A DNA stretch of 64,000 bases from an uncultured Candidatus Saccharibacteria bacterium (GTDB lineage Bacteria > Patescibacteriota > JAUYIX01 > CAYNWW01), in the NCBI GenBank assembly GCA_964401055.1, contig CAYNWW010000004.1:13390-77389 (forward strand), given 5' to 3'. Position numbers and translations under genes: made by a program. This document shows positions 1 through 13,832 of this stretch, piece after piece (positions within the stretch are counted from its first letter, which is position 1; every line of letters begins with the position of its first letter). The notes under the pieces are model-generated. The model saw only the letters and a program-made list of their open reading frames with translations, was not told where the DNA came from and made no database searches.

Positions 1-881
1 AACAGCCGCGCTTTTCTGTCCCTCCTTATCTCGGCAAACGGCAACGCCTGGATGATCGACTCAAGTCCCATTTGTTCCAAAAATCCACCAATTTGCCAGC
101 ACCGGTTGTTAACCGGGGAATTCTCAAGCGAACGCGCAAAAATCCGCATATTCTTCTGCAAAATCCTTCGCATCGGCCTCATCACACGCGATTGTTTCTC
201 GCGCGCGCAAAGCATGTTCAGGATGACTTGCGCAGAATATTGCTCGCGCACATATTCCAGCAGCGCCTCGGCGTTTTTCTCGTTCGCATCGCGAGACGCG
301 AAACGAATTTCGAGCTTTTTATGCGATCGACGCATACGCTGACGACGGTTAAAACACACGATTTTCACCAGATCAGCACAGACCTCAGGGCGAACTTGCA
401 ATCTACAGATAAGGTGCTCGATATAATACGCAATCAGCTCTTCTAACAGAACCTCGTATTCGAAAAAGTCACGCTTTCTCCCGCCGGTCACTTCCGTCCA
501 GAGGCTTTCGCCCAAAATCTGGATGGGGAGTTGTTTTTCAAACCGATACAAGTCGTAGTCTTCTCCTACATGCTCGAGTGATTTTCGGCGCAGCTGCTCG
601 CGCTCAGCCCACCCAAAGAGTACGCAATACGCACGCTCAGCGCCTGGATGAAGGCCTCCTTCAGACCAGCTACCCCAACCTCCAGATCCGGTCTTCAATC
701 GAATCACTCGATTAAAACGCCCTCCATCGTCCTCGGAAGTCGGCTCCTTGCCAAAAAGACTCTCCAATTCCAATCGAACCATTGCCTGCAACGACTTATT
801 CAGAGAGGGGCGCACAACCAGCTCCAAAGGGGTTTGCGACAAATCTAAAACCTGAATCCCAGCGCTCAAATTCGGGCACAT
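1..881 (-). CDS. Hypothetical protein, N-terminal 293 codons (gene runs off the left edge of the window; ATG at 881)
   Basis: Continuous open frame on the minus strand from the ATG at 879-881 to position 3, with no stop. GGAGGA Shine-Dalgarno 9 nt upstream (reverse complement of 891-896). Absent from the ORF track, presumably because it has no stop inside the window. All plus-strand ORFs in 52..848 lie inside it. No family recognised. Confidence 0.5.
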   Translation of the reverse strand, partial: MCPNLSAGIQVLDLSQTPLELVVRPSLNKSLQAMVRLELESLFGKEPTSEDDGGRFNRVIRLKTGSGGWGSWSEGGLHPGAERAYCVLFGWAEREQLRRKSLEHVGEDYDLYRFEKQLPIQILGESLWTEVTGGRKRDFFEYEVLLEELIAYYIEHLICRLQVRPEVCADLVKIVCFNRRQRMRRSHKKLEIRFASRDANEKNAEALLEYVREQYSAQVILNMLCAREKQSRVMRPMRRILQKNMRIFARSLENSPVNNRCWQIGGFLEQMGLESIIQALPFAEIRRDRKARL

Positions 882-981
882 GACTCAAATTCCTCCGTTG
901 TTTATCCTCAAGACACCTGTCTTCAGGACGAGGTATTTAAGCACGCGTTGATAGATTTTGCAAGAGGCGAGTCTGTGAGCT

Positions 982-1010
982 TTGACAAAGTATAAATAAA
1001 ATGATATAAT
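982..1010 (+). promoter_or_regulatory. Sigma70-type promoter: TTGACA (982-987), 17-nt spacer, TATAAT (1005-1010), upstream of the SpoIID-domain gene
   Basis: Perfect consensus hexamers with 17-nt spacing read directly; the region is divergent to the minus-strand gene starting at 881. Confidence 0.5.
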
Positions 1011-1109
1011 GTATCTAGTTCCTGAGGTTCCGCGACCAAAATCTGTCGCCCAGCTCTCAGCACCCAAAAATGCCGCAAAAAAAACAGCTCAAAAACAAAC
1101 ACAAAACAT

Positions 1110-2687
1110 ATGTCCGTTCCCGCTCCTGGAGCACAATTTAGCCAGATGCTGGCGCAGGCGCCTCCGCAGTCACTGGCGCAAGAAAACCTGCAAGATACAC
1201 CGGAAATCCGTTATTCCCGGGTGTTGTTTTTTGTCTCGGTGAGTTTGTTGGCACTGGTGCCCTTGGTTTGGGCCGCGCGCGAACCCCAGGCCCTGGTACG
1301 CGGCGTCGGACTCGAATCCAGTGTGGCTGCGCTCACATTTCACTCTAGTGCAACTCCACCGGCAACAACACCTGTCGCGCCCCAGCCGACTCGCGATTAT
1401 GAAGCGAAAAAAGTCGGCCAAAGCGTCACCGCGCTCACGCTCAAGCCACGCGAAAAAATTCGCGTCTGGGTGGATTTTCGCAATGCAGGCCGCGTGACGT
1501 GGTTGCGCGAAACCGCGAGCGGTTCAGATTTTATCGCCATCAACTCGCTCAACGCAGACCCAATCACCGGCATCGACCCGTTTCGCGCGCCCGACTGGGA
1601 TCTCGCATACAATCACTACGCATTCCGCCCCGGCCGCATGAGCCAGACTTCGACCGCCCCCGGCGCCACTGCGCGATTTTACATCACCCTTCAAGCGCCA
1701 CTCACACTTGGCACATACACGGAAAAATTCACCTTGGTCGCGGAAAACCGCGAAGCCATCACCGGCGGCACGTTCACGCTTCCGGTCACCGTAGTCGCCG
1801 ATACCGCAGCCGCCATCGACCGCGCACACAAAGGCGAAACCGTACGCGTGGGAATTTGGAATACCGAAAAACCGGTACAAATCAGCTCAGCCGCCGCATT
1901 TACCGCATTGGATGCCGCAAAAAAACCACTGCGCACCTACGCAGCGGATGAAATCGCCACCGTACAATATGTCGCCGCGACAAAAGCGTATCTCCTTGAC
2001 GGCGCGATCGTGGCGTCTGCGTATGTGACCTTCGAACCCACACCTGGAGAATTTATCGAAATCGTCAACTATCCCGGCCGCGCAAGTACAACCTCGGCAT
2101 ACAATGATAATTATTTCCCGGGCAAACTCGAATACCGCCACTCGTCGCTGTCCGGCCGCACCTGGGTCATCAACACGCTCTCACTCGAAGCCTACGTCCG
2201 CGGAGTGGGCGAGGTGTCCAACGCAACACCGCACGAAATGCAAAAAGCCATGACCATCGTCGAGCGCACCTATGCCGAATACCACCGCCGCCGCGCGACC
2301 AAACACGCGAGCGACTTTTTCCACGTCGATAACAGATACGACCAAGTCTACAAAGGCGCCGGATTTTCTTTTCGCAATCCGCTCGTCGCGACCGCAGCCG
2401 TAGAAACCGCCGGCTCCATTGTGACTTACCAAGGCGCGCTCGCCATCACGCCGTATTTCAGTCGCAGCGATGGCCGCACGCGCTCATATCGCGAAGTGTG
2501 GGGCGGCGCCGGTCTGCCATGGCTCGTGGGTGTCGATGTACCCCAAAGCAAAGGCCAGCCGCTCCTCGGCCACGGCGTGGGCATGGATGCGTATGCAGGC
2601 GTGCAAATGGCTGCAAAGCAAAATGCGACCGCGGCAACAATTTTGCAATATTTTTATACCGGAACCACGCTCACAAAAATCTACTAA
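1110..2687 (+). CDS. SpoIID/LytB-domain protein (membrane-anchored, peptidoglycan remodelling)
   Basis: N-terminal TM helix. The C-terminal half carries SpoIID-like signatures (LEAYVRGVGEVSNATPHEMQKAMTIVERTYA ... DQVYKGAGFS ... TYQGALAITPYFSRSDGRTRSYREVWGG). Confidence 0.65.
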   Translation: MSVPAPGAQFSQMLAQAPPQSLAQENLQDTPEIRYSRVLFFVSVSLLALVPLVWAAREPQALVRGVGLESSVAALTFHSSATPPATTPVAPQPTRDYEAKKVGQSVTALTLKPREKIRVWVDFRNAGRVTWLRETASGSDFIAINSLNADPITGIDPFRAPDWDLAYNHYAFRPGRMSQTSTAPGATARFYITLQAPLTLGTYTEKFTLVAENREAITGGTFTLPVTVVADTAAAIDRAHKGETVRVGIWNTEKPVQISSAAAFTALDAAKKPLRTYAADEIATVQYVAATKAYLLDGAIVASAYVTFEPTPGEFIEIVNYPGRASTTSAYNDNYFPGKLEYRHSSLSGRTWVINTLSLEAYVRGVGEVSNATPHEMQKAMTIVERTYAEYHRRRATKHASDFFHVDNRYDQVYKGAGFSFRNPLVATAAVETAGSIVTYQGALAITPYFSRSDGRTRSYREVWGGAGLPWLVGVDVPQSKGQPLLGHGVGMDAYAGVQMAAKQNATAATILQYFYTGTTLTKIY

Positions 2688-3250
2688 AATCCCAACGCGG
2701 GCGCATCGCCGACAGCACGTGCACGTTCTACCAACTGCACATGCGCACCTTCTTCGACAGAACCATCACGAATCACCAGCGCGTCAGTGCGAATTTCAAT
2801 CACTGCGGTGCGCCCGATCAACAGTTCTTTGGTGGCACGAATTTCGTCCAAACTCAAGCGCGCCGGATGGCGCAACAACTCAGCAATACGTCGGGAAAAT
2901 TCGGGCTTCACGCGATACTGCACGATATCCCAACTCGTCGAGTCCACCACAAATTCCATCACAGTGCCGATCCGCTCATCGCCCCACGTCAACACCGGAA
3001 GTCCGACGAGCTCGACATGTGCGTCGCGCGAGGCCGTGCTTGGAGAAGGAGACACAAGGAGTTTGCCATCAGATTCCACAATCACATCACCCGCGCTCAC
3101 CGCACGATCGCCGATCACCAGACCGACTACCACGCCCCGCAAACGATCAATCAAAAAACCGGAACACATCCGGCTCTTTTTTTGCGCAGCACCATCCTCG
3201 CCGCGCGCTACCACCTGATATTTCACCACATCGCGAGAAGAAATCAGCAT
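2684..3250 (-). CDS. PRC-barrel-like domain protein (tentative)
   Basis: Two G/V/D-rich beta-barrel-like segments (GDVIVESDGKLLV; IGRTAVIEIRTDALVIRDGSV) reminiscent of PRC barrels. Weak call. Confidence 0.3.
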   Translation of the reverse strand: MLISSRDVVKYQVVARGEDGAAQKKSRMCSGFLIDRLRGVVVGLVIGDRAVSAGDVIVESDGKLLVSPSPSTASRDAHVELVGLPVLTWGDERIGTVMEFVVDSTSWDIVQYRVKPEFSRRIAELLRHPARLSLDEIRATKELLIGRTAVIEIRTDALVIRDGSVEEGAHVQLVERARAVGDAPALGF

Positions 3251-3259
3251 ATCCGCGAC

Positions 3260-3853
3260 CTACGCCTCGACAGGTTGCGCCGCGGCTTCTATCTCTTGTG
3301 CAATTTCCGCAAACGAACGCGCATCGGCGGTAGATTTTACGACAATACGTCGATTGGGATCCTGACCAAGACTTTCCGCCACCAAGCCTTCACGGCCGAG
3401 CAATTCCATGTGCACCACGCGCCGCTCATACGACGACATCGGGCGCATTGCCTCAAACGTGCCGGATTCGGACACGCGCAATGCCACATCAGCGGCAAGT
3501 GATTTCAAGTATTCAATGCGTTTGGTTTTGTATTCGTTAACATCGAGAATAAAATTGAGCCGCGCGAGCGCCTCGTCGGTTTTGTACAAATTGCGCACCA
3601 TCAGTCGTGCAATGTATTGCAATGCTTGCAGGTTGGCGCCTTGCTGGCCGATCAACAAACTCGGGTTTTTGACTTTAATATTGATCACGATCAGTTCGCG
3701 ATCGTTATCGCTGCGAATACTTTCCGAAAGCTGCGCATCCACGCCCAGGCGTGCAAGCAATTCAGCAACTATCGTTTTGAGTTGGTCAATCGGTTGCGAA
3801 TCCATGAGGGTGAAATTAGCGACTGTTAAGCGGTTTTCCTCATTATATACCAT
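3260..3853 (-). CDS. jag: Jag/KhpB-like RNA-binding protein (KH + R3H domains)
   Basis: KH-like GQQGANLQALQYIARLM and a C-terminal R3H region (SYERRVVHMELLGREGLVAESLGQDPNRRIVV). Sits directly downstream of yidC as usual. Start chosen at the internal ATG (3853); the ORF-track start at 3889 is a TTG that overlaps yidC by 64 nt. Confidence 0.7.
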   Translation of the reverse strand: MVYNEENRLTVANFTLMDSQPIDQLKTIVAELLARLGVDAQLSESIRSDNDRELIVINIKVKNPSLLIGQQGANLQALQYIARLMVRNLYKTDEALARLNFILDVNEYKTKRIEYLKSLAADVALRVSESGTFEAMRPMSSYERRVVHMELLGREGLVAESLGQDPNRRIVVKSTADARSFAEIAQEIEAAAQPVEA

Positions 3854-4572
3854 TGCTGACCTATTGCAAACAACGTGGACACCGTCCAATACAGCGCAAG
3901 TCCGGCCGGCAGGCTAAATCCGATCACCGCGGTCATCACCGGCATCACATACGTGAGTTGTGTGTTCACCATCGAGCTAATTCCCGGATCAGCCGGCTTT
4001 TTGTCATCCTTTGATCCAACCACCACCGGCTGCGACGCTTTTTTTGCTTTTTGCTGGGCTTGCATCATTTTTGACTGGACAAATTGCAAAGCACCCGCGA
4101 CCAGCGCCAACACCTTGCTCGGCGCATTGAGTGCAACTACGCCAAGAAGAGTGGTCGATAACGCGCCCGGATTGTGCACAAATGAATACAACGAGCTGAG
4201 ATTCTCTGCGTGAAATCCAAAGTTAAACACCTGATACAAAGCGATCAAGATAGGGAGCTGAATCAATAGCGGAAGGCACGAAGACAGGGGATTTACTTTG
4301 TGCTCGCTATACAGCTTCATCAACTCGGCGCTTTGTTTCTGCTGGTCGTCTTTATATTTTTTGCGCAGCTCGTCCATCTTGGGCTGCAAATCCTGAAGCG
4401 CTTTTTGCGACTTGATCGACTGAAGCGACAGCGGGAAGAGCGCGAATTTGATAATCAACGTGATCAAAATAATCGTCACGCCAAAATCATGGCCAGGCAC
4501 GAGGTTGTACAAAAACACAAGAAGGTTAAACAACGGTTGCGTAAGAGCGGTGAAAAAAATACCGGATTGCAT
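3826..4572 (-). CDS. yidC: Membrane protein insertase YidC (short form)
   Basis: Multi-TM 60-kDa-insertase core (KFALFPLSLQSIKSQKALQDLQPKMDELRKKYKDDQQKQSAELMKLYSEHKVNPLSSCLPLLIQLPILIALY). Confidence 0.9.
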   Translation of the reverse strand: MQSGIFFTALTQPLFNLLVFLYNLVPGHDFGVTIILITLIIKFALFPLSLQSIKSQKALQDLQPKMDELRKKYKDDQQKQSAELMKLYSEHKVNPLSSCLPLLIQLPILIALYQVFNFGFHAENLSSLYSFVHNPGALSTTLLGVVALNAPSKVLALVAGALQFVQSKMMQAQQKAKKASQPVVVGSKDDKKPADPGISSMVNTQLTYVMPVMTAVIGFSLPAGLALYWTVSTLFAIGQQWYIMRKTA

Positions 4573-4581
4573 GAGGTAAAA

Positions 4582-4878
4582 TTAACTAATAGAAGAAGTG
4601 CGGCTGCGTGCAGGCGGGACGTCGTCCTCACCCCCGGAATTCCACGGATTGCAGCGGGCGATGCGCCACGCGACGAGTGCGCCACCCTTGATGACGCCAA
4701 ATCGTTCGATCGCTTGTGCACCGTACATGGAGCAGCTGGGCGAAAAACGACAGTAGCCGTACGGAAAAAACACTTTGAGCGGGCCGTGGTCAAACGACAA
4801 CGTGTGCTGGTACACCCAAATCAATGCGAGCACCACGCGCCGCGGAATTTGCGTAAGCGTGAAAAAGATTTTTTTCAT
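4582..4878 (-). CDS. yidD: Membrane protein insertion efficiency factor YidD
   Basis: YidD signature (YQHTLSFDHGPLKVFFPYGYCRFSPSCSMYGAQAIERFGVIKGGALVAWRIARCNPW). Start at MKKIFF (4878), overlapping the rnpA stop in an ATGA arrangement. Confidence 0.85.
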   Translation of the reverse strand: MKKIFFTLTQIPRRVVLALIWVYQHTLSFDHGPLKVFFPYGYCRFSPSCSMYGAQAIERFGVIKGGALVAWRIARCNPWNSGGEDDVPPARSRTSSIS

Positions 4879-5222
4879 ACAGACACTCCGGTGCGAATCC
4901 GCGCCAGACACTGGCTCAAATCATGCACCAACACATCACCGGGCTGGCCAATTATTCCGGCAGATGCCCACACAATAATATCATATCCGGGTGCGATTGT
5001 CGGCAGCATCGGACGGACAGCTTCGCGCAGCAAGCGCTTGACGCGATTGCGGGCAGTGGCACGCTTGCTGATTTTGTTGGAAACAATAAAGGCAAACCGA
5101 GTGGTCGGCTTGCCAGTTTTGACCGCGCTGATTTGAAGATAGCGTGCGCGAGAGCGAGTTCCGCGCCTCATGCAGTGCTGGATATCGGCGCTTTTTTGCA
5201 AACGAAACGGGCGCGCGAGCAC
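4875..5222 (-). CDS. rnpA: Ribonuclease P protein component RnpA (GTG start)
   Basis: RnpA motifs (RLQKSADIQHCMRRGTRSRARYLQI ... FIVSNKISKRATARNRVKRLLREAVR). Canonical position between rpmH and yidD. Confidence 0.9.
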   Translation of the reverse strand: MLARPFRLQKSADIQHCMRRGTRSRARYLQISAVKTGKPTTRFAFIVSNKISKRATARNRVKRLLREAVRPMLPTIAPGYDIIVWASAGIIGQPGDVLVHDLSQCLARIRTGVSV

Positions 5223-5230
5223 AGGCGCGA

Positions 5231-5365
5231 TTAGACCGTAAGTTTTGCGCGGCCTTTTTTGCGTCGGCGCTTCAAAACTTTGCGACCATTGAGAGTCAAC
5301 ATGCGCTTGCGAAAGCCATGTGTGCGCTTGCGCTTGATCTTTTTTGGCTGATACGTGCGTTTCAT
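5231..5365 (-). CDS. rpmH: 50S ribosomal protein L34 (44 aa; missed by the ORF track because under 60 aa)
   Basis: Hand translation of the reverse complement gives [44 protein letters not shown] followed by a stop, an unmistakable L34. Sits directly upstream of rnpA. Confidence 0.9.
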
Positions 5366-5436
5366 AAATATCGTTAATTAACGGACACTGATGAATTTAT
5401 CAGAAAAATGGCGGGGCGTCAACAGTGTAACGCGAT

Positions 5437-5466
5437 TTGACGATATCATCCCTTCATGGTAAAAAT
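5437..5466 (+). promoter_or_regulatory. Candidate promoter (TTGACG, 17-nt spacer, TAAAAAT) for the 5493 two-gene cassette
   Basis: Hexamers read directly; placed about 25 nt upstream of the SD. Confidence 0.3.
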
Positions 5467-5468
5467 AC

Positions 5469-5484
5469 CCTCCTATAGAGGAGG
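5469..5484 (+). promoter_or_regulatory. Small hairpin sequestering the Shine-Dalgarno (CCUCC, 6-nt loop, GGAGG) of the 5493 gene
   Basis: 5-bp stem CCTCC/GGAGG with loop TATAGA. The GGAGG lies 8 nt upstream of the GTG start. Possible thermometer-like translational control. Confidence 0.3.
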
Positions 5485-5492
5485 AACTCATC

Positions 5493-5852
5493 GTGAACAC
5501 CGGTCTTGCAAATCCAGAAGTCGTTGCGCGCACCCTGCTTGATCAGCTAACCGCTTTGGGCGAAGGCATTATTACGCGCATCAACGAGGCGTCCGCAAAC
5601 CTGAAAGGAGTTATCGACATCGAACACACAGATGGCGGATGCATCATCTGCAGAAGTCCAGACAAAGCAAGTCGACACCTCATCGGGGTCGATTGGAAAC
5701 GTGTCGCTGGCGCAACTGTACATCGCAATGCAGAAGACGAGGGCCAATCAGTTGTAACTGTCAAAAATGCAGCTGGCGCAGTCTTGTTGCAGATTATGTA
5801 TCCAGGAGAATACTTTAACCGTATTGACGCTTATCTGAAAGGTTGCCGATGA
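5493..5852 (+). CDS. Hypothetical protein (119 aa), first gene of a two-gene cassette between rpmH and oriC
   Basis: GTG start with a strong SD. Clean 119-codon frame in a region that looks lower in GC than its neighbours. Its stop overlaps the next start as ATGA. Confidence 0.5.
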   Translation: MNTGLANPEVVARTLLDQLTALGEGIITRINEASANLKGVIDIEHTDGGCIICRSPDKASRHLIGVDWKRVAGATVHRNAEDEGQSVVTVKNAAGAVLLQIMYPGEYFNRIDAYLKGCR

Positions 5853-6127
5853 AAGCACGGCTGATTGCTCTAGTGCCTTCCAAGGAAGACCCGACAATTC
5901 TCGCGCGAATACTTTGCTGGAAAAATCGGAGTCATATCGCAATCATCCCGGCGTTTAATAGCAAGGGAGAATTGTACAACTGGCACTTCGCATTTACGTG
6001 CTGTTGGAACAACCACGCCATTTTCGACTCGCGGTCCATACCCATCAAAGGCGACATACTGTATCCTATTCCCGAGCACATACGAGACGAATTCCTGAGA
6101 AAAATTAGGCACCCCCAAGCTCGATAA
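5849..6127 (+). CDS. Hypothetical protein (92 aa, Trp/Cys-rich), second gene of the cassette
   Basis: The ATG at 5849 overlaps the upstream TGA (ATGA, translational coupling). No recognisable family (…CWKNRSHIAIIPAFNSKGELYNWHFAFTCCWNNH…). Confidence 0.45.
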   Translation: MKARLIALVPSKEDPTILARILCWKNRSHIAIIPAFNSKGELYNWHFAFTCCWNNHAIFDSRSIPIKGDILYPIPEHIRDEFLRKIRHPQAR

Positions 6128-6156
6128 TCATCGGGCTTTTTCTTTTCCCCAGATCC

Positions 6157-6382
6157 TGTGGATAGTGTGCATGACTTGGGGAAACATATACACAACGCGC
6201 ACCCGCTCGAGCACAAGCTTTATCCGCAGTTTCCACAAGTTATCCACAAACTTATCCACTTATACACAGAGTTGTGCACATGCTCTGGGGAGATCGTGGG
6301 GAAAATACAAAAAATCCGCGCAGAAAAAGGAAAAAATTTGTGGATTTGCTTTTCCACCGCTCTCATGTAAACTTGTGGATAA
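6157..6382. promoter_or_regulatory. oriC part 1: DnaA-box cluster upstream of dnaA
   Basis: Perfect TTATCCACA at 6240-6248 and TGTGGATAA at 6374-6382. One-mismatch boxes at 6157-6165 (TGTGGATAG), 6220-6228, 6252-6260 and 6260-6268. Confidence 0.6.
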
Positions 6383-6442
6383 GACGCGGAGAGAAAATTT
6401 TGAAATACAACGTAACGTGAACAATAAGGTGGGTGTATTTGT

Positions 6443-7987
6443 ATGACGAATCAAGAAATTTGGAAAGCGGCGCTCGGAGAACTTGAACTGACAGTCAGCA
6501 AAGCAATGTTTTCGACGTGGTTCAAAGACACGTTTATCTTGACCAGTGAAAATGGCAACGTGACCGTGGGCGTGCCCAACGGATTTGCGAAAGAATGGCT
6601 CGAAGGCAAGATGAAAAAAGAAGTCTTCCGCGCATTGCAACACGTGACCAACAACGGCGTACGCGAAATCAAATACCAAATCACCAGCCAAGCCCAGCCA
6701 CAAACGCCGCAACAACAAGTCCAGCTCCGCCAGCCAGTCGTCTCAATGACACAACAATCAGTTTCTTCAGCCGGCGCGGCAGCTGCCGCAATTGCATCTG
6801 CGGTTGCCACGCGTCCGTCACAGCCAACCGTTCATATTACCATTCCGGCCACCGCATCACATGCGCAATCAGGCAATGGTGGCATGCATACCCAAAGTGC
6901 GTCAGCGGCGCAATCCGGCGGCACTCAGACGCAGTCGCACACCCAAGCCAATGATTATTTTTCCACCAACCTCAACCCCAAATACCGCTTCGAATCATTT
7001 GTGGTCGGCAGCAACAACGAACTCGCGCGCGCAGCGTGTCTTGCGGTCGCCAACAACATTGGCCACTCGTACAATCCGCTCTTTATCTACGGCGGCGTGG
7101 GTTTGGGCAAAACGCACCTGCTCCAAGCAGTCGGCAATGCAATCCTTGAAAAAGATCCAACCAAAAAAGTTCGCTACGTTTCGAGCGAACATTTTACCAA
7201 CGAAGTAGTCGAAGCTATTCGCAAGCAAACCATGTCGCAGGTAAAAGAGAAGTACCGCCAGGTGGATTTGCTCATCATCGACGATATCCAATTCCTTGCG
7301 ACCAAAGAAAAAACGCAGGAAGAATTTTTCCATACCTTCAACACGCTTTACGAAGCCAACAAGCAGATCATCATTTCGAGCGACCGTCCGCCCAAAGCCA
7401 TCCCAACACTCGAGGCGCGCTTGCAGTCGCGATTTGAAGGCGGCATGATTGCGGATATCGGCGCGCCGGATCTCGAGACGCGGATTGCGATTTTGCAGAA
7501 AAAGGCGATTGAAAAAAATTTCCCGGTGCAGGAAGGCGTCTTGAGCTATATCGCGAGCCACATCCAAAACAACGTGCGCGAACTCGAGGGCGCTATGAAT
7601 CGCGTGATTGCGCAGTGCCAGATCGAGCATCTCGAGCCGACACTGGAAAATGCCAAAAGCGTGCTCAACAACATCACCTCGGCGCCGTCGAAAAAAGCTA
7701 CGTCCGTGGAACGAATTATCGACGCCACGGCCGGATATTATCATTGCAACAAAGAAGACCTGGTGGGCAAGAGTCGCAAAAAAGAAATCGTGCGTCCGCG
7801 CCAAGTGGCCATGTATTTGCTGCGCGAAGAATTCAAGGCAAGCTTCCCGCAAATCGGCCAAGAACTGGGCGGCAAAGATCACACCACGGCCATGCACGCC
7901 TACCAAAAAGTAAAGTCGGCGGTCGACAATGAAGACGCAATCCGCCAAGATATTGACTTAATTCGCCAAAGATTGTACTCTGAATAA
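6443..7987 (+). CDS. dnaA: Chromosomal replication initiator DnaA
   Basis: AAA+ Walker A GVGLGKTHLLQAVGN, Walker B LLIIDDIQFL, and a C-terminal DnaA-box-binding domain (QVAMYLLRE...GGKDHTTAMHAYQK). Long low-complexity Q/A/S linker after domain I. SD AAGGTGG. Confidence 0.95.
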   Translation: MTNQEIWKAALGELELTVSKAMFSTWFKDTFILTSENGNVTVGVPNGFAKEWLEGKMKKEVFRALQHVTNNGVREIKYQITSQAQPQTPQQQVQLRQPVVSMTQQSVSSAGAAAAAIASAVATRPSQPTVHITIPATASHAQSGNGGMHTQSASAAQSGGTQTQSHTQANDYFSTNLNPKYRFESFVVGSNNELARAACLAVANNIGHSYNPLFIYGGVGLGKTHLLQAVGNAILEKDPTKKVRYVSSEHFTNEVVEAIRKQTMSQVKEKYRQVDLLIIDDIQFLATKEKTQEEFFHTFNTLYEANKQIIISSDRPPKAIPTLEARLQSRFEGGMIADIGAPDLETRIAILQKKAIEKNFPVQEGVLSYIASHIQNNVRELEGAMNRVIAQCQIEHLEPTLENAKSVLNNITSAPSKKATSVERIIDATAGYYHCNKEDLVGKSRKKEIVRPRQVAMYLLREEFKASFPQIGQELGGKDHTTAMHAYQKVKSAVDNEDAIRQDIDLIRQRLYSE

Positions 7988-8025
7988 TCTGAGACGCCAA
8001 AGAGGCGCGAAGATATCCCCAGTTT

Positions 8026-8290
8026 TGTGGATAACCTGTGGAGAAGTGGTAAAAGATGGGGATAAGTTGGGCAGTTGTGCCCAGAATATCCTCAGGCCGC
8101 TGCGGGACAATACAGCTGCGTCCCTGTTACCCCCAATTCGTCCTCAGATTGTCCGGATGTGAATCCCCGGGTTGTGCCCAGGCTCGATTGGCGGTCAGCA
8201 CACAAAAAAGTGCGTTTTCCCCACAATCCACAGCACTACTCCTATAATAACTACAATTATTTATATATAAGAAAGAAAAAACGCTTAGGG
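8026..8290. promoter_or_regulatory. oriC part 2: DnaA box (TGTGGATAA, 8026-8034) plus AT-rich unwinding-element-like stretch (8243-8280) between dnaA and dnaN
   Basis: Perfect box and a roughly 40-nt AT-rich tract (ctataataactacaattatttatatataagaaagaaaaa) read directly. Confidence 0.5.
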
Positions 8291-9399
8291 TGGATATGAA
8301 ATTATCTTGCACACAGGAAAACTTAAATAGAGGATTATCAATTGTTGGACGGACGGTAAGCTCAGACAATGCATTACCGGTGTTGAGCAATGTGTTGTTG
8401 CGCGCAGAAAAGGGTCGATTGCAATTGTCAGCGACGGATTTGGAAATCGGCGTGGTGTGCGTGATCGGTTGTCGGATTGATGAAGATGGCGCGATTACAG
8501 TGCCGGCCCGTTTGTTAACTGAATACGTGAGTTCGCTGCCGGAAGGCACGATTGAAATCGAGCTGAAAAAGCAAGACCTGCATTTGTCGCTCGGCGAATA
8601 CAAAGCGACTATCAAGGGCGTGGATGCGGAGGAATTCCCGTTGATCCCCAAAATCGCAGAAGAGCCGGTGATGGAAATCGAAGCGCCGCAGTTGCGTGAT
8701 GCGATTGGCAAAGTGGTGTTTGCTACGACTGCTGACGAATCCCGACCGGAAATCGCGGGCGTATTTATGCGCGAAAAAGACGGCGCGCTCTACGTGGTCG
8801 CAACCGATAGCTATCGTTTGGCGGAAAAACGCGTCGATGGCGTGACCATGTTGAAAAAAGCGCACGATATTATTATTCCGGCAAAAACGCTGCAAGAAGT
8901 CTATCGGATTTTGGACGGGGTGACGGAAAAAGTGCGGATTTCGCTGTCGGAAAACCAGATTTTGTTTACCACGACCGAGATCGAGCTGATTTCGCGCTTG
9001 ATCGAAGGCCAATATCCGGATTATGAGCAGATCATGCCGCGCAAGCATGAGACTGAAATCACGCTCGATGGCCGCGAATTTTTGAAAACCATCAAGATCA
9101 CCAGTTTGTTTTCCCGCTCAGGTGCCAACGATATCAAGTTTGAATTCGATCCAGAGACCGACGAAATGGTGCTGCTCGCGGTGTCTGATCAGGTGGGCGA
9201 GAATATTTCTCGTTTCAAAGTGAAAACCACCGGCTCAAAAGGTAGCATCGTGTTCAGCTATCGCTATTTGATTGACTGCATCAACAACATGCGGGGCGGC
9301 GCGATTATGCTCGAAATTGGTGCCGACAACGCGCCGACCCTGATGAAGGTCGCGGGCACGGATGATTATCGCTATATTATTATGCCGATCAAGCAGTAA
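8290..9399 (+). CDS. dnaN: DNA polymerase III beta sliding clamp DnaN
   Basis: Typical N-terminus (LSCTQENLNRGLSIVGRTVSSDNALPVLSNVLLRAEKGRLQLSATDLEIG) and a three-domain length. GTG at 8290 or ATG at 8296. Confidence 0.9.
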   Translation: MDMKLSCTQENLNRGLSIVGRTVSSDNALPVLSNVLLRAEKGRLQLSATDLEIGVVCVIGCRIDEDGAITVPARLLTEYVSSLPEGTIEIELKKQDLHLSLGEYKATIKGVDAEEFPLIPKIAEEPVMEIEAPQLRDAIGKVVFATTADESRPEIAGVFMREKDGALYVVATDSYRLAEKRVDGVTMLKKAHDIIIPAKTLQEVYRILDGVTEKVRISLSENQILFTTTEIELISRLIEGQYPDYEQIMPRKHETEITLDGREFLKTIKITSLFSRSGANDIKFEFDPETDEMVLLAVSDQVGENISRFKVKTTGSKGSIVFSYRYLIDCINNMRGGAIMLEIGADNAPTLMKVAGTDDYRYIIMPIKQ

Positions 9400-9450
9400 C
9401 GCGGTGCGTGACGCCGACGTGGCGCGCGTTTGGGGTGCATAACTCTGTGT

Positions 9451-9480
9451 AAAAATACCTCATGATGGGGGTATTTTTTT
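9451..9480. terminator. Bidirectional rho-independent terminator between convergent dnaN and the phosphatase gene
   Basis: AAAAATACC, 9-nt loop, GGTATTTTT: a 9-bp perfect stem flanked by an A-run and a T-run. Confidence 0.5.
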
Positions 9481-9507
9481 ATCCCCACGTTGAGCGGCTT
9501 TTCCCCA

Positions 9508-10143
9508 TCAGCTGTGGGTAAACTGCTCATTTTTAATGAGATGTTTGGTCGAATTAAGCACGAGTGGAATCACCGTGCGATCCGCCGCAATATCCAATAT
9601 TGTGATCGCGGTGTTGTCGGGTTTGAATTGGTCATACGTGTCGCGCGTGATTTGTTTTTGTAACAATGTGAGCAAAAGCACGGTGATCACGCCGGCGTGA
9701 CTGAGAAGTAGGACGGAATCGTGGGATGCAAGATGGGTAGAAAATAGGCGAGATACAAACGGCGTGATGCGTGCCTGTAAATCCGCATAGGACTCGCCGC
9801 CTTCGGGGCGAAAAAGATGAAATGGCTCGGGAGACTGCTGCATGGCTTCTTTCCATGTCGCGCTTGGACCGCCTTCGTAGACGCCGAGATTGCGTTCTTG
9901 CAACAGCGGCTCGAACGTCACTGGCGTATCGCGGTGAAAGTGCGCGACTGTGCGCGTAGTGTCTGCGGCGCGTTGCAAGTCGCTTGAATAGATATGATCC
10001 AGGTGTTCGGATGCGAGTTGGCGTGCAAGCTGGCGCGCTTGGGCGAGGCCGGCATCGTTGAGATCGCCGCCGATTTTTTGCCCCATGCTGATTTTTGCGG
10101 CGTTTTGGTGCGTTTCGCCGTGACGCGTGATGATGAGTCTCAT
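9508..10143 (-). CDS. Histidine phosphatase family protein (phosphoglycerate-mutase-like)
   Basis: RHGE catalytic motif (MRLIITRHGETHQN...SSDLQRAADT). Start taken at MRLIIT (10143). Confidence 0.7.
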   Translation of the reverse strand: MRLIITRHGETHQNAAKISMGQKIGGDLNDAGLAQARQLARQLASEHLDHIYSSDLQRAADTTRTVAHFHRDTPVTFEPLLQERNLGVYEGGPSATWKEAMQQSPEPFHLFRPEGGESYADLQARITPFVSRLFSTHLASHDSVLLLSHAGVITVLLLTLLQKQITRDTYDQFKPDNTAITILDIAADRTVIPLVLNSTKHLIKNEQFTHS

Positions 10144-10189
10144 GAGTAGAGAATAACATGCCGCCCCGTGTTCATGGTAAAATAGGTGT

Positions 10190-11395
10190 ATGTTCCTCAC
10201 CTCTCTTGCCGCGCGCAATTTTCGTAATTATGCCGAGCTGGCGCTTGATTTTCATCAAGGGCCGGTCGTGTTTGTTGGGCGGAATTCGAGCGGGAAGACC
10301 AATGTGCTCGAGGCGATCAATCTGCTGAGTTTGGGGAAGTCGTTTCGCAAAGTGCCGGATAGCGAGTTGATTCGCTGGGGCGAAGACGGCGTGCAGGTGC
10401 GGGCGGAATTTGAGCGCGCGGATGAGAAGTTGGAGTTGGAGATGCGTGGTGCACGCACGGCGATTGCGGGTTCTGAGGGCGCGGGCGCTGCCGCGTTGAA
10501 AAAAGTATTTTTACTCAATGGTGCGCCGGCGCCGCTGGTAACTTTTCTGGGAAGCGTGATTGCGGTGGTATTTTCGCCGCAAGATGTGGAGCTGCTGAGC
10601 GCACCACCGGCTCTCCGAAGGCGTTTCCTTGACATGGTACTTTGCAAAACGTCGCGCGAATATTGCACGGCCGTGATTGAGTATCCAAAAATTCTTGCGC
10701 GGCGCAACAAGCTGCTTGCGTTTATTCGTGACGGACTTGCGCAAGAAGACGAGTTGGCGTTTTGGGATGAACGCGCGGCCGCGGCGGCTGCATGCATTGT
10801 CTCGGAGCGCGCAGAATTTATCGCGTGGATCAACGAGCGGATTTCGGATTTGTATATGCGTCTCGCCGATAATTCTATGCAGAAGAAAAAAATCGCCGTG
10901 CAATATCGTGCGCCGATTGATCTGAGCGCGTCGACGTCGCAAGATTTTACACAAGGATGCGCGGCGCGTGAATTCATCGCTCAAGCGATCCTCGCGCGAA
11001 TGCAACGCGATAGAAAGCGCGACGTCATCTTCGCAAGCACGCGCACCGGTCCGCATCGTGATGACGTGGTGGTGACGAGCGACGATCATGAGATCGCTAA
11101 TGTGGGTTCGCGCGGTGATCAGCGCGTGGCGGTGCTTGCGCTCAAGTTGTTGCAAAAAGAATTTCTTGCGCAACGCACCGAGACTTCGCCTGTGCTCCTG
11201 CTCGATGATGTATACTCGGAGTTGGATACTTTTCGCTGCACCGCACTCGCCGAGATGATGCAAGATTCCCAAGTGTTTATTACCACCACAAGCGCCAAGC
11301 TTGTTCCGCGCGAATTTCGCTCGGGCGCACAAATTTTTACTATCAAAGAAGGAGTTGCGAGCCATGCGTCCACCTCTGCAACCGCGAAAATATAG
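10190..11395 (+). CDS. recF: DNA replication and repair protein RecF
   Basis: SMC-like Walker A (GRNSSGKTNVLEAINLLSLGKSFR) and a C-terminal signature/Walker B (VLLLDDVYSELD). Confidence 0.9.
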   Translation: MFLTSLAARNFRNYAELALDFHQGPVVFVGRNSSGKTNVLEAINLLSLGKSFRKVPDSELIRWGEDGVQVRAEFERADEKLELEMRGARTAIAGSEGAGAAALKKVFLLNGAPAPLVTFLGSVIAVVFSPQDVELLSAPPALRRRFLDMVLCKTSREYCTAVIEYPKILARRNKLLAFIRDGLAQEDELAFWDERAAAAAACIVSERAEFIAWINERISDLYMRLADNSMQKKKIAVQYRAPIDLSASTSQDFTQGCAAREFIAQAILARMQRDRKRDVIFASTRTGPHRDDVVVTSDDHEIANVGSRGDQRVAVLALKLLQKEFLAQRTETSPVLLLDDVYSELDTFRCTALAEMMQDSQVFITTTSAKLVPREFRSGAQIFTIKEGVASHASTSATAKI

Positions 11396-11870
11396 CCCGC
11401 AGCCGCGAGTTCCGCGCATTGGCGGCGGCGGAAATGGAGACCTGCGCTCGCTTGGCGACGTGCTCGGTCAGCGGATTGGTTTGAGTCGGGCGGCTTCGCC
11501 GCTTGCGGCATTTGGCATTGGCAATGAAGCCCAAGCCGCATTTGTGTGCGCACAATACAATCAACTCCTCCGCGAGACCTGTGGTGCGCGCTTTGCTGAT
11601 CATGCGCGCGCAGTCACCTATCGCGTGCGGGAGCATGATCTGGTGGTGGAGGTGATGGGCGGCACCATCTGGGCGACCGAACTGCGGTTGCGCGAAACGG
11701 CAGTGCTCGAAGCGTATCATCGGAAACATACCGCGAGTGGGTTGCGCATCGCGCGTGTGCGGTATGTGGCGGCGCGGCCAGAAGAGCAAGAAATCGAACC
11801 ACCGGCACCGACGGTGGCGGAACAACAGGCAGAAGAACATGAACAGCTGCCCGCAGATATGTTAGAATAA
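11364..11870 (+). CDS. DUF721/DciA-like protein (the usual gene after recF); start at internal ATG 11364
   Basis: Position after recF, size, and an AAGGAG SD 10 nt upstream of the ATG at 11364. Overlaps the recF 3' end by 32 nt. Family call by context and weak similarity only. Confidence 0.4.
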   Translation: MRPPLQPRKYSPQPRVPRIGGGGNGDLRSLGDVLGQRIGLSRAASPLAAFGIGNEAQAAFVCAQYNQLLRETCGARFADHARAVTYRVREHDLVVEVMGGTIWATELRLRETAVLEAYHRKHTASGLRIARVRYVAARPEEQEIEPPAPTVAEQQAEEHEQLPADMLE

Positions 11871-11877
11871 TAATATT

Positions 11878-13353
11878 ATGTCAGAACGACCCGGCGCCGG
11901 AGATTTTTCAGAAAAAAATTTTTCTCCGGATGCGAAAAAAAATACACAAGAAAAAAATCCGGAGCGCTTTGAGCGGCGCGAAGAATTCGGCCGCGTTGTG
12001 GCGGTGTCCCGGACCGAAAGGGGCGCGTATCATGCAGAGCGCCAAACTGGCAATGAGGACGCGATCCACGTCGACGCGCGTATTGGTTTTGCCGCGGTAT
12101 ATGACGGGATGGGCGGCCACGGGCATGGCGGCGAGGCGTCTTTTGAGGCAAACCAACTTACAAAAAAATCCTTGTTGCGATTTTTGCGGCCGCAGGCATT
12201 TTCTCCTGAAGAAATTGGCCACGAACTCGAGAGTATGATCAAGTCGGCAAATAGTCATCTCAATAAGCGAAGGAAAGAATTGAACTACGCCGATGACGCT
12301 CTTCGATCCACGGCGGTGCTGGCGAAATTGTGGCAAAGTCCTGAAGGCGCCTACAAAGCAATCGTCGCTTATGCTGGTGATAGTCGCGCATATGTCAGAA
12401 AGAAATCGGGCGAGACAATTCTTGTCACTGCCGACCATTTGGGCATTCGTTCGGCGATTGACGACATGCTGAGCGACAATAAGGTCGCGCAAAAAATATC
12501 AGATTCGGATTATCTTAAAGTTTTATTATATCTTGATCGCCTGGAGCGTCCGGAAAAAATGGAAAAAATCGCGCTTGGGCATTTGAACCTGAGTCCAGGC
12601 GTGGAAAAACATCGCGTAAGCATTGAAAAAATGCTGCCGCTCGCATTGCGGTTTGTGGGCGGACCCAATAAGGGTTTGGGACTTGCGCCGGAGATCGAGC
12701 CGGACGTTCGGATTGTTGATTTGGAGCCGGGAGATGTGCTTATGCTTGCCACTGATGGGGTGTATAAACCACTCGCACCTGAAGAATTAGGTGACGCGCT
12801 TGGAACTCAGGTTGATACGCAAGCTGTGTATGATCGGATTCGAGGCAAGACAAAAGACGACGCAACGATTGGCGTGTTGGCTGTGCGCTCACCGGAGACA
12901 CTTGCAACGCCAGCGAAAAAATCAATCGACTCGGCGCGGCCGTCGCAAGGTATAGTTGGGAAAAGAGGACCGCTTGATCTGGGTGGAATTCGTCAACAAG
13001 TGGATCAAATGCGGATGCGCGAATTGCCGCTATTGCAGCGAGAGCGGAAATTTGAGCAGCAGCCCGAAAAAAACTATTGGCTGGACATGGATTTGGCGTA
13101 TCTTGTTCGCCGATATCCAGGCGAGAAAAATCTTGCAAAGCGCGTTGAGGATTTTCGCGAGTCGGTGTTGTCGCGTTCAAAAATTCACGACGCAAACGAG
13201 ATCGTACCTGAGCATCCGGATCGCGATGAGGTCAATGAGTATGTGCGTGATGGTCAGATGCCGTATGAGGTGGTGTGGGATATTATTCAGCAAGATTTGG
13301 ATAACGAGCGCAAGCTACAGAAATACTTGCGCAGGATAAAAAGAGAGGGTTAG
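11878..13353 (+). CDS. PP2C-family Ser/Thr protein phosphatase with a roughly 190-aa uncharacterised C-terminal extension
   Basis: PP2C motifs NEDAIHVDARIGFAAVYDGMGGHGHGGEAS, AYAGDSRAYV and LMLATDGV. The C-terminal region has no recognisable domain. Confidence 0.7.
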   Translation: MSERPGAGDFSEKNFSPDAKKNTQEKNPERFERREEFGRVVAVSRTERGAYHAERQTGNEDAIHVDARIGFAAVYDGMGGHGHGGEASFEANQLTKKSLLRFLRPQAFSPEEIGHELESMIKSANSHLNKRRKELNYADDALRSTAVLAKLWQSPEGAYKAIVAYAGDSRAYVRKKSGETILVTADHLGIRSAIDDMLSDNKVAQKISDSDYLKVLLYLDRLERPEKMEKIALGHLNLSPGVEKHRVSIEKMLPLALRFVGGPNKGLGLAPEIEPDVRIVDLEPGDVLMLATDGVYKPLAPEELGDALGTQVDTQAVYDRIRGKTKDDATIGVLAVRSPETLATPAKKSIDSARPSQGIVGKRGPLDLGGIRQQVDQMRMRELPLLQRERKFEQQPEKNYWLDMDLAYLVRRYPGEKNLAKRVEDFRESVLSRSKIHDANEIVPEHPDRDEVNEYVRDGQMPYEVVWDIIQQDLDNERKLQKYLRRIKREG

Positions 13354-13367
13354 TAGTGCCGAGCAGC

Positions 13368-13832
13368 CTACGCCACTTGGCATTGTGCGCATAGCAGCTT
13401 CATCGGCTGCGCCAGCAGCAGTTCTTCCGCGATCACTTCCCGCAGGTTGATTGTCTGATCAGCGTCCGCGCTCGTGGCCTCGATAAGGAGTGATCCCTCC
13501 GCTTCGTCTTCAACCGTGTCCCAATTCACCGGTCGCACGCAGGCGCGTTGTGTTTCGATATCGGCGTGTCCTTGGCCGCGTTGGCCGCACGAGTCGCAGG
13601 TAAATTCGTAAGTAATGGTTGCTTCGAGGCTGAGCTCGAGATCGCGCGGTGCGCGAGTAAGCTGGAGTGCCAGGTGTGTGTCACCGTATGGGGAGATGCG
13701 AAGAGCTTCGCTGCCCATCAGGACGCGCTCATCAAGGACGACGCGTACATCTGCCTCTTGTATGGCGCCGAGTTCACGCGCCAAGATTGATTTGACGGAA
13801 AAATGAAGCGAGTCAGTGGGTGTGTGAGGCAT
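13368..13832 (-). CDS. YceD/DUF177-family protein (ribosomal-large-subunit-accumulation-like)
   Basis: Size and two Cys pairs (CDSCGQRGQ ... CAQCQ) typical of DUF177. Tentative. Confidence 0.45.
   Translation of the reverse strand: MPHTPTDSLHFSVKSILARELGAIQEADVRVVLDERVLMGSEALRISPYGDTHLALQLTRAPRDLELSLEATITYEFTCDSCGQRGQGHADIETQRACVRPVNWDTVEDEAEGSLLIEATSADADQTINLREVIAEELLLAQPMKLLCAQCQVA

Follow-up and report, generated by a model that had tools for sequence, protein, structure and literature searches.

In Patescibacteria, rpmH and dnaA are commonly neighbours on opposite strands: rpmH was divergent and adjacent in 55 of the 80 dnaA loci compared, and the median distance between the two genes in these 55 loci is 273 nt. 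At the locus studied here the same gap measures 1077 nt. It lies on a stretch of 64 kb, referred to below as the window, from a Patescibacteria (CPR) host with 52.0% GC. The question raised by this locus is what the additional DNA encodes and whether it represents a recognisable system. A preliminary description of the DNA had pointed to two genes on the same strand between rpmH and the DnaA boxes, in a position unusual for protein-coding genes, and had proposed a toxin-antitoxin-like module, an origin-associated module or a horizontally acquired cassette. Direct reading of the DNA confirmed the coordinates of both open reading frames, the GTG start of ORF1 with the AGGAGG motif 8 nt upstream and the overlap of the ORF1 stop with the ORF2 start as ATGA at 5849-5852. 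The two frames and the signals around them are called the cassette in the following. To us it looks like ordinary lineage-specific cargo and not like a recognisable new system. The features of the locus are:

left of the cassette, minus strand: jag, yidC, yidD, rnpA and rpmH
5231-5365, minus strand: rpmH
5394-5422, minus strand: promoter-like site of rpmH (TTGACG, 17 nt, TAAATT, with TG)
5437-5466, plus strand: sigma-70-like promoter-like site of the cassette (consensus match)
5469-5484, plus strand: palindrome CCTCCT-ATAG-AGGAGG over the expected transcription start, including the Shine-Dalgarno sequence
5479-5484, plus strand: Shine-Dalgarno sequence AGGAGG
5493-5852, plus strand: ORF1, GTG start, 119 aa, 12.8 kDa, pI 6.3, orphan
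5837-5842, plus strand: weak Shine-Dalgarno-like GAAAGG, 6 nt upstream of the ORF2 start codon
5849-6127, plus strand: ORF2, ATG start, 92 aa, 10.8 kDa, pI 9.7, orphan
6117-6147, plus strand: intrinsic terminator (stem 6117-6138, -10.7 kcal/mol)
6157-6382: upstream DnaA-box cluster, one part of a two-part oriC
6443-7987, right of the cassette: dnaA
8026-8065: second DnaA-box cluster (three boxes) between dnaA and dnaN, with dnaN beyond it

Among the GTDB species representatives the best matches to the DnaA protein are only about 50% identical and come from MAGs of Moraniibacteriota and Parcubacteria. The closest DnaA proteins found anywhere are those of the loci L084 (65% identity), L087 (62%) and L085/L086 (62%); the collections searched contain no genome of the lineage whose DnaA is 70-95% identical. 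All of these loci keep the gene order jag-yidC-rnpA-rpmH followed by dnaA-dnaN, and none of them contains the two ORFs. The gap between rpmH and dnaA is 264 nt in L084 and 261 nt in L087, with no trace of either frame, and in L085/L086 the corresponding place, bounded by the rpmH promoter and the DnaA boxes, is taken by a gene for a 136-aa hemerythrin in the same orientation. Since ORF1 and ORF2 are missing from the closest relatives that have kept the gene order, the cassette is lineage-specific. The position is thus indeed unusual, a self-contained two-gene unit having been added where relatives normally have about 270 nt of intergenic DNA.

DnaA boxes with at most one mismatch are enriched in the window (29, compared to 9.6 ± 3.3 expected). 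The stretch 6240-6281 of the upstream cluster aligns to positions 1113-1153 of L084, and none of 300 shuffled sequences scored as well; from this alignment the two clusters are judged to be orthologous. The boxes are therefore ancestral, with the extra DNA lying between them and rpmH. The left edge of this slot is formed by the rpmH promoter-like site, which stands back to back with that of the cassette; similar sites of the form TTGAC(G/A/T)-N17-TA(C/A)AAT were read by eye upstream of rpmH in L084, L085 and L087. A more distant member of the Patescibacteria, L018, has a gap of 2.6 kb that contains a RhuM/Fic gene and a TrmB-type regulator. As far as the sequences of these loci tell, unrelated cargo settles now and then in the slot between rpmH and dnaA, and the cassette is the cargo of one lineage. 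Nothing relevant was retrieved from the literature on CPR bacteria with cargo genes between rpmH and dnaA.

ORF1 is very probably a real gene. Coding potential was determined with a three-periodic Markov model, for which 38 long genes of the window served as the training set; the evaluation was leave-one-out. The ORF1 score of 0.144 corresponds to the 27th percentile of real in-frame windows, a value that only 0.2% of the off-frame windows attain, and the frame is the best of six both in this model and with a simpler codon score. Gene callers also reported ORF1 in two independent assemblies. Comparison with L002, a copy on a JGI contig that is 98.9% identical, revealed four SNPs in ORF1, three of which are synonymous third-position changes, in line with the strong synonymous bias seen in the neighbouring genes. 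The available copies differ by only five SNPs, too few for selection on the ORF1 and ORF2 proteins to be measurable. In the AlphaFold model of ORF1, which is of low confidence (pLDDT 54), there are a long helix at the N terminus, five strands and a helix at the C terminus.

These data leave little room for a reading in which neither frame is a gene and the gap consists of enlarged non-coding DNA near the origin in which open frames arose by chance. Such a reading would be consistent with the lack of any homologue outside the lineage and with the low confidence of both AlphaFold models. However, the coding score of ORF1 is hardly ever surpassed off-frame, its canonical Shine-Dalgarno sequence has the correct spacing and is accompanied by a promoter and a terminator, and its SNPs are mostly synonymous. 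In addition, DnaA boxes are not enriched within the cassette, and an Rfam scan of positions 5200-6500 detected no RNA family. We regard the non-coding reading as highly improbable.

The evidence for ORF2 is more divided. Its coding score of -0.125 falls at the 1st percentile of genes and within the off-frame range, being reached by 7% of off-frame windows; no gene caller reported it in either of the two independent assemblies. The stretch is also open in two minus-strand frames. The minus-strand ORFs of the cassette gave no Pfam matches and lower coding scores. The single SNP that separates ORF2 from L002 is non-synonymous and would be synonymous in an antisense frame, and the AlphaFold model is of low confidence (pLDDT 48). 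Together with the lack of a homologue even in an exhaustive search, these observations would fit an operon reduced to ORF1, with ORF2 as a chance or decaying frame in a 3' untranslated region of about 280 nt that extends to the terminator. On the other hand, an open frame of at least 92 codons following the ATGA overlap occurred in just 2.3% of dinucleotide shuffles, even though the ATG itself was not required there, and ORF2 fills the space up to the terminator, with the frame ending exactly within it. Furthermore, the weak Shine-Dalgarno-like GAAAGG stands 6 nt upstream, the ORF2 frame is still the best of six, and the region is not unusually structured as RNA (z = -1.3). The reading with ORF1 as the only gene is a possible but minority one in our estimation, and ORF2 is taken to be probably a real gene of atypical composition and codon usage. 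The preliminary description had called its product rich in Trp and Cys, which comes down to three W and three C in 92 residues. A programmed frameshift joining the two frames was considered and rejected upon direct reading, as no slippery heptamer precedes the stop codon of ORF1.

Both ORFs are enclosed by transcription signals. The -35 element of the cassette is TTGACG (5437-5442), starting exactly at 5437, and the -10 element TGgTAAAAA(T) covers 5457-5466, with an extended -10 TG in the register of a 17-nt spacer; an 18-nt spacer gives AAAAAT. Promoter-like sites are not enriched in this region over shuffled sequences (two found, compared to 1.6 ± 1.5), and the site is therefore called promoter-like on the basis of its match quality, its position and its likeness to other -10 boxes in the window. 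With this site the cassette has its own sigma-70-like promoter, divergent from that of rpmH, and a short leader with a canonical Shine-Dalgarno sequence. An AGGAGG motif is unusual here, as most genes in the window show no Shine-Dalgarno sequence.

Downstream, the terminator consists of a stem of 9 bp (AAGCUCGAU/AUCGGGCUU), four of its nine pairs being G-C, and a loop AAUC, followed by UUUCUUUUCC. It thus combines the stem-loop containing G+C and the U-run (TTTCTTTTCC) that define an intrinsic terminator. The first base of the ORF2 stop codon closes the stem, and the other two open the loop. With a promoter at the left and a terminator directly after ORF2 the unit is self-contained, and the terminator would shield oriC and the dnaA promoter from read-through. 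Neither the promoter-like site at 5437 nor the terminator stem at 6117-6138 had been recorded in the preliminary description.

That description had also reported a hairpin of 5 bp, formed by CCTCC and GGAGG, that buries the Shine-Dalgarno sequence of ORF1. The hairpin exists, but its stem has 6 bp and a 4-nt loop: in RNA, CCUCCU (5469-5474) pairs with AGGAGG (5479-5484) with -9.6 kcal/mol. RNA folding placed the Shine-Dalgarno sequence in a stable stem, with z = -2.67 in a 41-nt context. The pattern CCTCC-N3-10-GGAGG occurs once in the window, and at least one match was present in 7 of 100 shuffles. The palindrome stretch is identical in the only other copies of the cassette.

Whether the mRNA contains the whole hairpin depends on where transcription starts. 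At least seven genes in the window have a good -10 box that ends 6-9 nt before the ATG, which suggests that they are transcribed into leaderless mRNAs; a literature search gave nothing relevant on leaderless genes in Patescibacteria. When the same distance is applied to the cassette, whose -10 box ends at 5465/5466, transcription would be expected to start at about 5471-5475. The first base of the palindrome's 5' arm stands only 3-4 nt beyond the end of the -10 box, and the expected start falls inside this arm. The hairpin was kept when the RNA was folded from 5469 and was lost when folding began at 5471, 5472 or 5473; the leader that remains from 5471 on has less structure than nearly all shuffled sequences. 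Because the expected start lies within the 5' arm, sequestration of the Shine-Dalgarno sequence, as it had been proposed, is doubtful. The cassette resembles the leader hairpins of translational attenuators and RNA thermometers in that an anti-Shine-Dalgarno mimic, CCUCCU, pairs perfectly with AGGAGG. In contrast to these, its 5' arm is probably located at or upstream of the transcription start and would be largely missing from the mRNA. The palindrome might more likely be a DNA operator over the start site, or a by-product of the strong Shine-Dalgarno sequence, than an RNA hairpin that hides it. Like the operator role, the possibility that the palindrome has no role at all is likely to be nearer the truth than sequestration. 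Together with a T-run the palindrome is also terminator-like on the minus strand (5485 to 5468).

Neither protein belongs to a recognisable family; here the preliminary description was borne out by profile, sequence, phage/plasmid and metagenome searches. Scans of ORF1 and ORF2 against Pfam, NCBIfam, PHROGs and PADLOC yielded only noise (E ≥ 0.08), and a sequence search of the PDB found nothing for either protein. In a word-indexed search of 5.8 billion protein clusters ORF1 retrieved only its own copy with 98% identity, and ORF2 had no match. Since ORF1 was compared with metagenomic proteins by word-indexed search only, very remote homologues could exist. For ORF2 an exhaustive phmmer search against 1.84 billion representatives was carried out, and its single match, a Thr/Ser/Gly-rich repeat protein of 1443 aa (E = 1.1e-5), aligned in four stretches with 20% identity and was rejected as compositional. 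Neither ORF was detected when viral and metagenome contigs were scanned at the DNA level, and tblastn against six-frame translations of phages and plasmids gave no accepted match: one for ORF2 (E = 0.2), located under HicB of phage phiKM1, is in another reading frame than this gene, and one of ORF1 to an NqrA gene (E = 0.2) was rejected. Weak ORF1 matches (E ≥ 0.013) in the C-terminal Ig-like domain of PBP1A, obtained with tblastn of both ORFs against 86 loci, were judged to be due to chance. The only copies of the cassette that were found are 98-100% identical (L001, L002 and an NCBI contig).

The absence from close relatives at a conserved site is what would be expected of a horizontally acquired cassette. 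The base composition does not point in this direction. The cassette was said to be lower in GC than its flanks; when windowed GC was computed, its value of 48.8% was within one standard deviation of windows of equal size (52.0 ± 4.0%), 22% of which are as low or lower; the window as a whole has 52.0%. A GC content of 57%, which had been given for the flanks, is approached only by rnpA and yidD (56%), the values for the neighbouring genes being 48.3% for yidC, 48.9% for rpmH, 51.8% for dnaA, 49.7% for dnaN and 56.0% for rnpA. ORF1 has coding statistics of the native style and is not compositionally foreign; among the two frames ORF2 alone is atypical. The compositional case for horizontal acquisition is thus not supported. 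Neither terminal inverted repeats nor recombinase genes were found as signatures of mobility, and the sole flanking repeat is a marginal direct repeat of 20 nt with 80% identity (5390-5409 and 6086-6105), for which 4.7% of shuffles score equally. A 9-nt sequence, AAGCTCGAT, which by eye is common to this locus and to L084 beside the -35 element of rpmH, was considered as an insertion boundary and is too short to rely on.

What function could such a unit have? Several features recall type II toxin-antitoxin operons such as RelBE, ParDE and HicAB, in which case ORF1 would be the acidic antitoxin and ORF2 the basic toxin of a new module, their translation being coupled and their complex repressing transcription via the palindrome over the transcription start. 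The two small genes are co-directional and overlap by 4 nt, the products have 119 and 92 aa and pI values of 6.3 and 9.7, and a candidate operator, the palindrome at 5469-5484, which is the only one of its pattern in the window, comes directly after the -10 box. Moreover, the unit is self-contained and absent from relatives, and the corresponding slot of L018 holds a gene of the Fic/Doc family. In the defining features that were open to testing, namely toxin family, DNA-binding domain of the antitoxin and mobile distribution, the cassette differs from the known operons. Among the Pfam, NCBIfam and PADLOC profiles neither a known toxin superfamily (RelE/ParE, MazF, VapC, HicA, Doc/Fic, HipA, GNAT and others) nor an antitoxin DNA-binding domain (RHH, HTH, AbrB/SpoVT or Phd/YefM) was matched; the toxin-antitoxin-like module considered plausible in the preliminary description is not supported. 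Furthermore, the distribution is not the patchy one of mobile modules, only nearly identical copies being found, and the codons of ORF1 are native. As no defining domain is present and the pair was found in no other genome, a toxin-antitoxin function is considered rather unlikely.

A role at the origin is less likely than a toxin-antitoxin function. It would require either that transcription toward the DnaA boxes influences oriC, as in mioC, or that the products modulate initiation at oriC or the expression of dnaA. In Escherichia coli, mioC is a small transcription unit beside oriC. The cassette resembles it as a small unit directly beside the origin that is transcribed toward the DnaA boxes. 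Its terminator stops about 10-19 nt short of the first box (6157) and has a modest stem and an interrupted U-run, so that some read-through is conceivable from its sequence. It differs from mioC in several respects: a terminator stands ahead of the boxes, the cassette promoter region (5366-5492) contains no DnaA box with at most one mismatch, neither product is related to MioC, a flavodoxin-like protein, and relatives do not conserve the unit beside oriC. Pfam and NCBIfam gave no match to the replication regulators YabA, SirA, DiaA/HobA, Hda or SeqA, and the origin-associated role suggested earlier was not supported. The same oriC layout occurs in relatives that do not have the unit, one of which has the hemerythrin gene instead, and this argues for interchangeable cargo over an origin function. 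We therefore hold an origin-linked role to be improbable. Scarcely better is the prospect of a new two-protein module that depends on being located at the origin, toxin-antitoxin-like or replication-modulating for instance; in such a module the palindrome and partial read-through into the DnaA boxes would couple expression to initiation, and both proteins would found new families.

The reading that we prefer, and consider likely with some reserve, is that the cassette is a lineage-specific orphan operon of two cistrons in a variable accessory slot that extends from the rpmH promoter to the upstream DnaA boxes. Weighing against it, the promoter is a consensus match without enrichment over shuffled sequences, and the codon statistics of ORF2 and its lack of a gene call would also fit an extended 3' untranslated region or a gene in decay. 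In the lineage-specific operon translational coupling would provide the acidic 12.8-kDa alpha/beta protein and the basic 10.8-kDa, beta-rich protein in a fixed ratio, and the two products probably act together. Both would be cytoplasmic. By eye, neither sequence has at its N terminus a hydrophobic stretch of the length needed for a signal peptide. If both proteins are real, they represent new protein families in bacteria with much of the proteome uncharacterised.

Small orphan genes are common in CPR genomes, and the cassette is a tidy but ordinary case of these. Like other such genes it encodes short proteins without detectable homologues, is confined to one species-level lineage and occupies a slot that carries unrelated cargo elsewhere (L085, L018). 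The rpmH-dnaA gap of Patescibacteria is usually about 270 nt and occasionally takes up unrelated cargo immediately before the DnaA boxes; this is of modest use for the annotation of origins and for the question how accessory genes lodge near oriC. In two respects the cassette differs from the usual small orphan gene of these bacteria: it is unusually well formed, with promoter, a canonical Shine-Dalgarno sequence of a kind seldom used in this genome, ATGA overlap and terminator, and it adjoins a DnaA-box cluster.

Genes in the window were inspected for promoter-like and Shine-Dalgarno (SD) motifs upstream of their starts. In at least seven of them a strong -10-like box (TAAAAT, TAGAAT, TATACT or TATAAT, frequently with an extended TG) ends 6-9 nt 5' of the ATG, and no SD is present.

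Genes with a -10-like box close to the ATG
start 10190, plus strand
start 11878, plus strand
start 28573, minus strand
start 44388, minus strand
start 45783, minus strand
start 59262, plus strand
start 60333, plus strand

An SD-like motif of any kind was found for only about 5 of the 37 long genes in the window. Taken together with the short distance between box and ATG, this sequence pattern suggests that leaderless mRNAs are widespread in this Patescibacteria genome.

The DnaA protein encoded in the window (6443-7987) comprises 514 aa, compared to 450-480 aa in relatives, the extra length being a long low-complexity linker rich in Gln, Ala, Ser and Thr (approximately residues 85-170) that joins domain I and the AAA+ domain. 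The origin consists of two parts, with at least seven DnaA boxes located 5' of dnaA (6157-6382) and three between dnaA and dnaN (8026-8065), a layout likewise found in origins of the Bacillus or Helicobacter type. Comparison of window positions 1-15853 with the JGI contig L002 (98.9% identical) showed that SNPs are very unevenly spread; for example, 39 are located in dnaN, 13 in yidD, three in dnaA and none in the DnaA-box region. Judged from the sequences, such patchiness resembles a mosaic produced by recombination among populations that are closely related.

In the leader of the two-gene cassette, the minus strand of 5468-5485 scores as an intrinsic terminator, made up of the CCTCCT/AGGAGG palindrome and the TATTTTTACC that follows it. 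The cassette yielded no promoter on the minus strand, so the score probably arises only because the palindrome adjoins the A-rich -10 box. A 278-codon open frame on the plus strand (4300-5136), antisense to yidC, yidD and rnpA, is almost certainly spurious as a gene; it was included in the first codon-usage training set and left out of the second coding model.

The rpmH-dnaA gap, which holds the cassette in the window, is occupied by a hemerythrin gene (2677-3087) in the relative L085, and by a RhuM/Fic-domain gene and a TrmB-type regulator in the more distant Patescibacteria genome L018 (3677-5568); in both genomes the cargo is unrelated to the cassette. In another relative, L087, whose DnaA is 62% identical, dnaN and recF are separated by three genes (10847-13820) with the domains ATP-grasp_2/Citrate_bind, CoA_binding/Ligase_CoA and Citrate_synt. 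By its predicted domains the set is ATP-citrate-lyase-like, which is unexpected for a reduced CPR-type genome.
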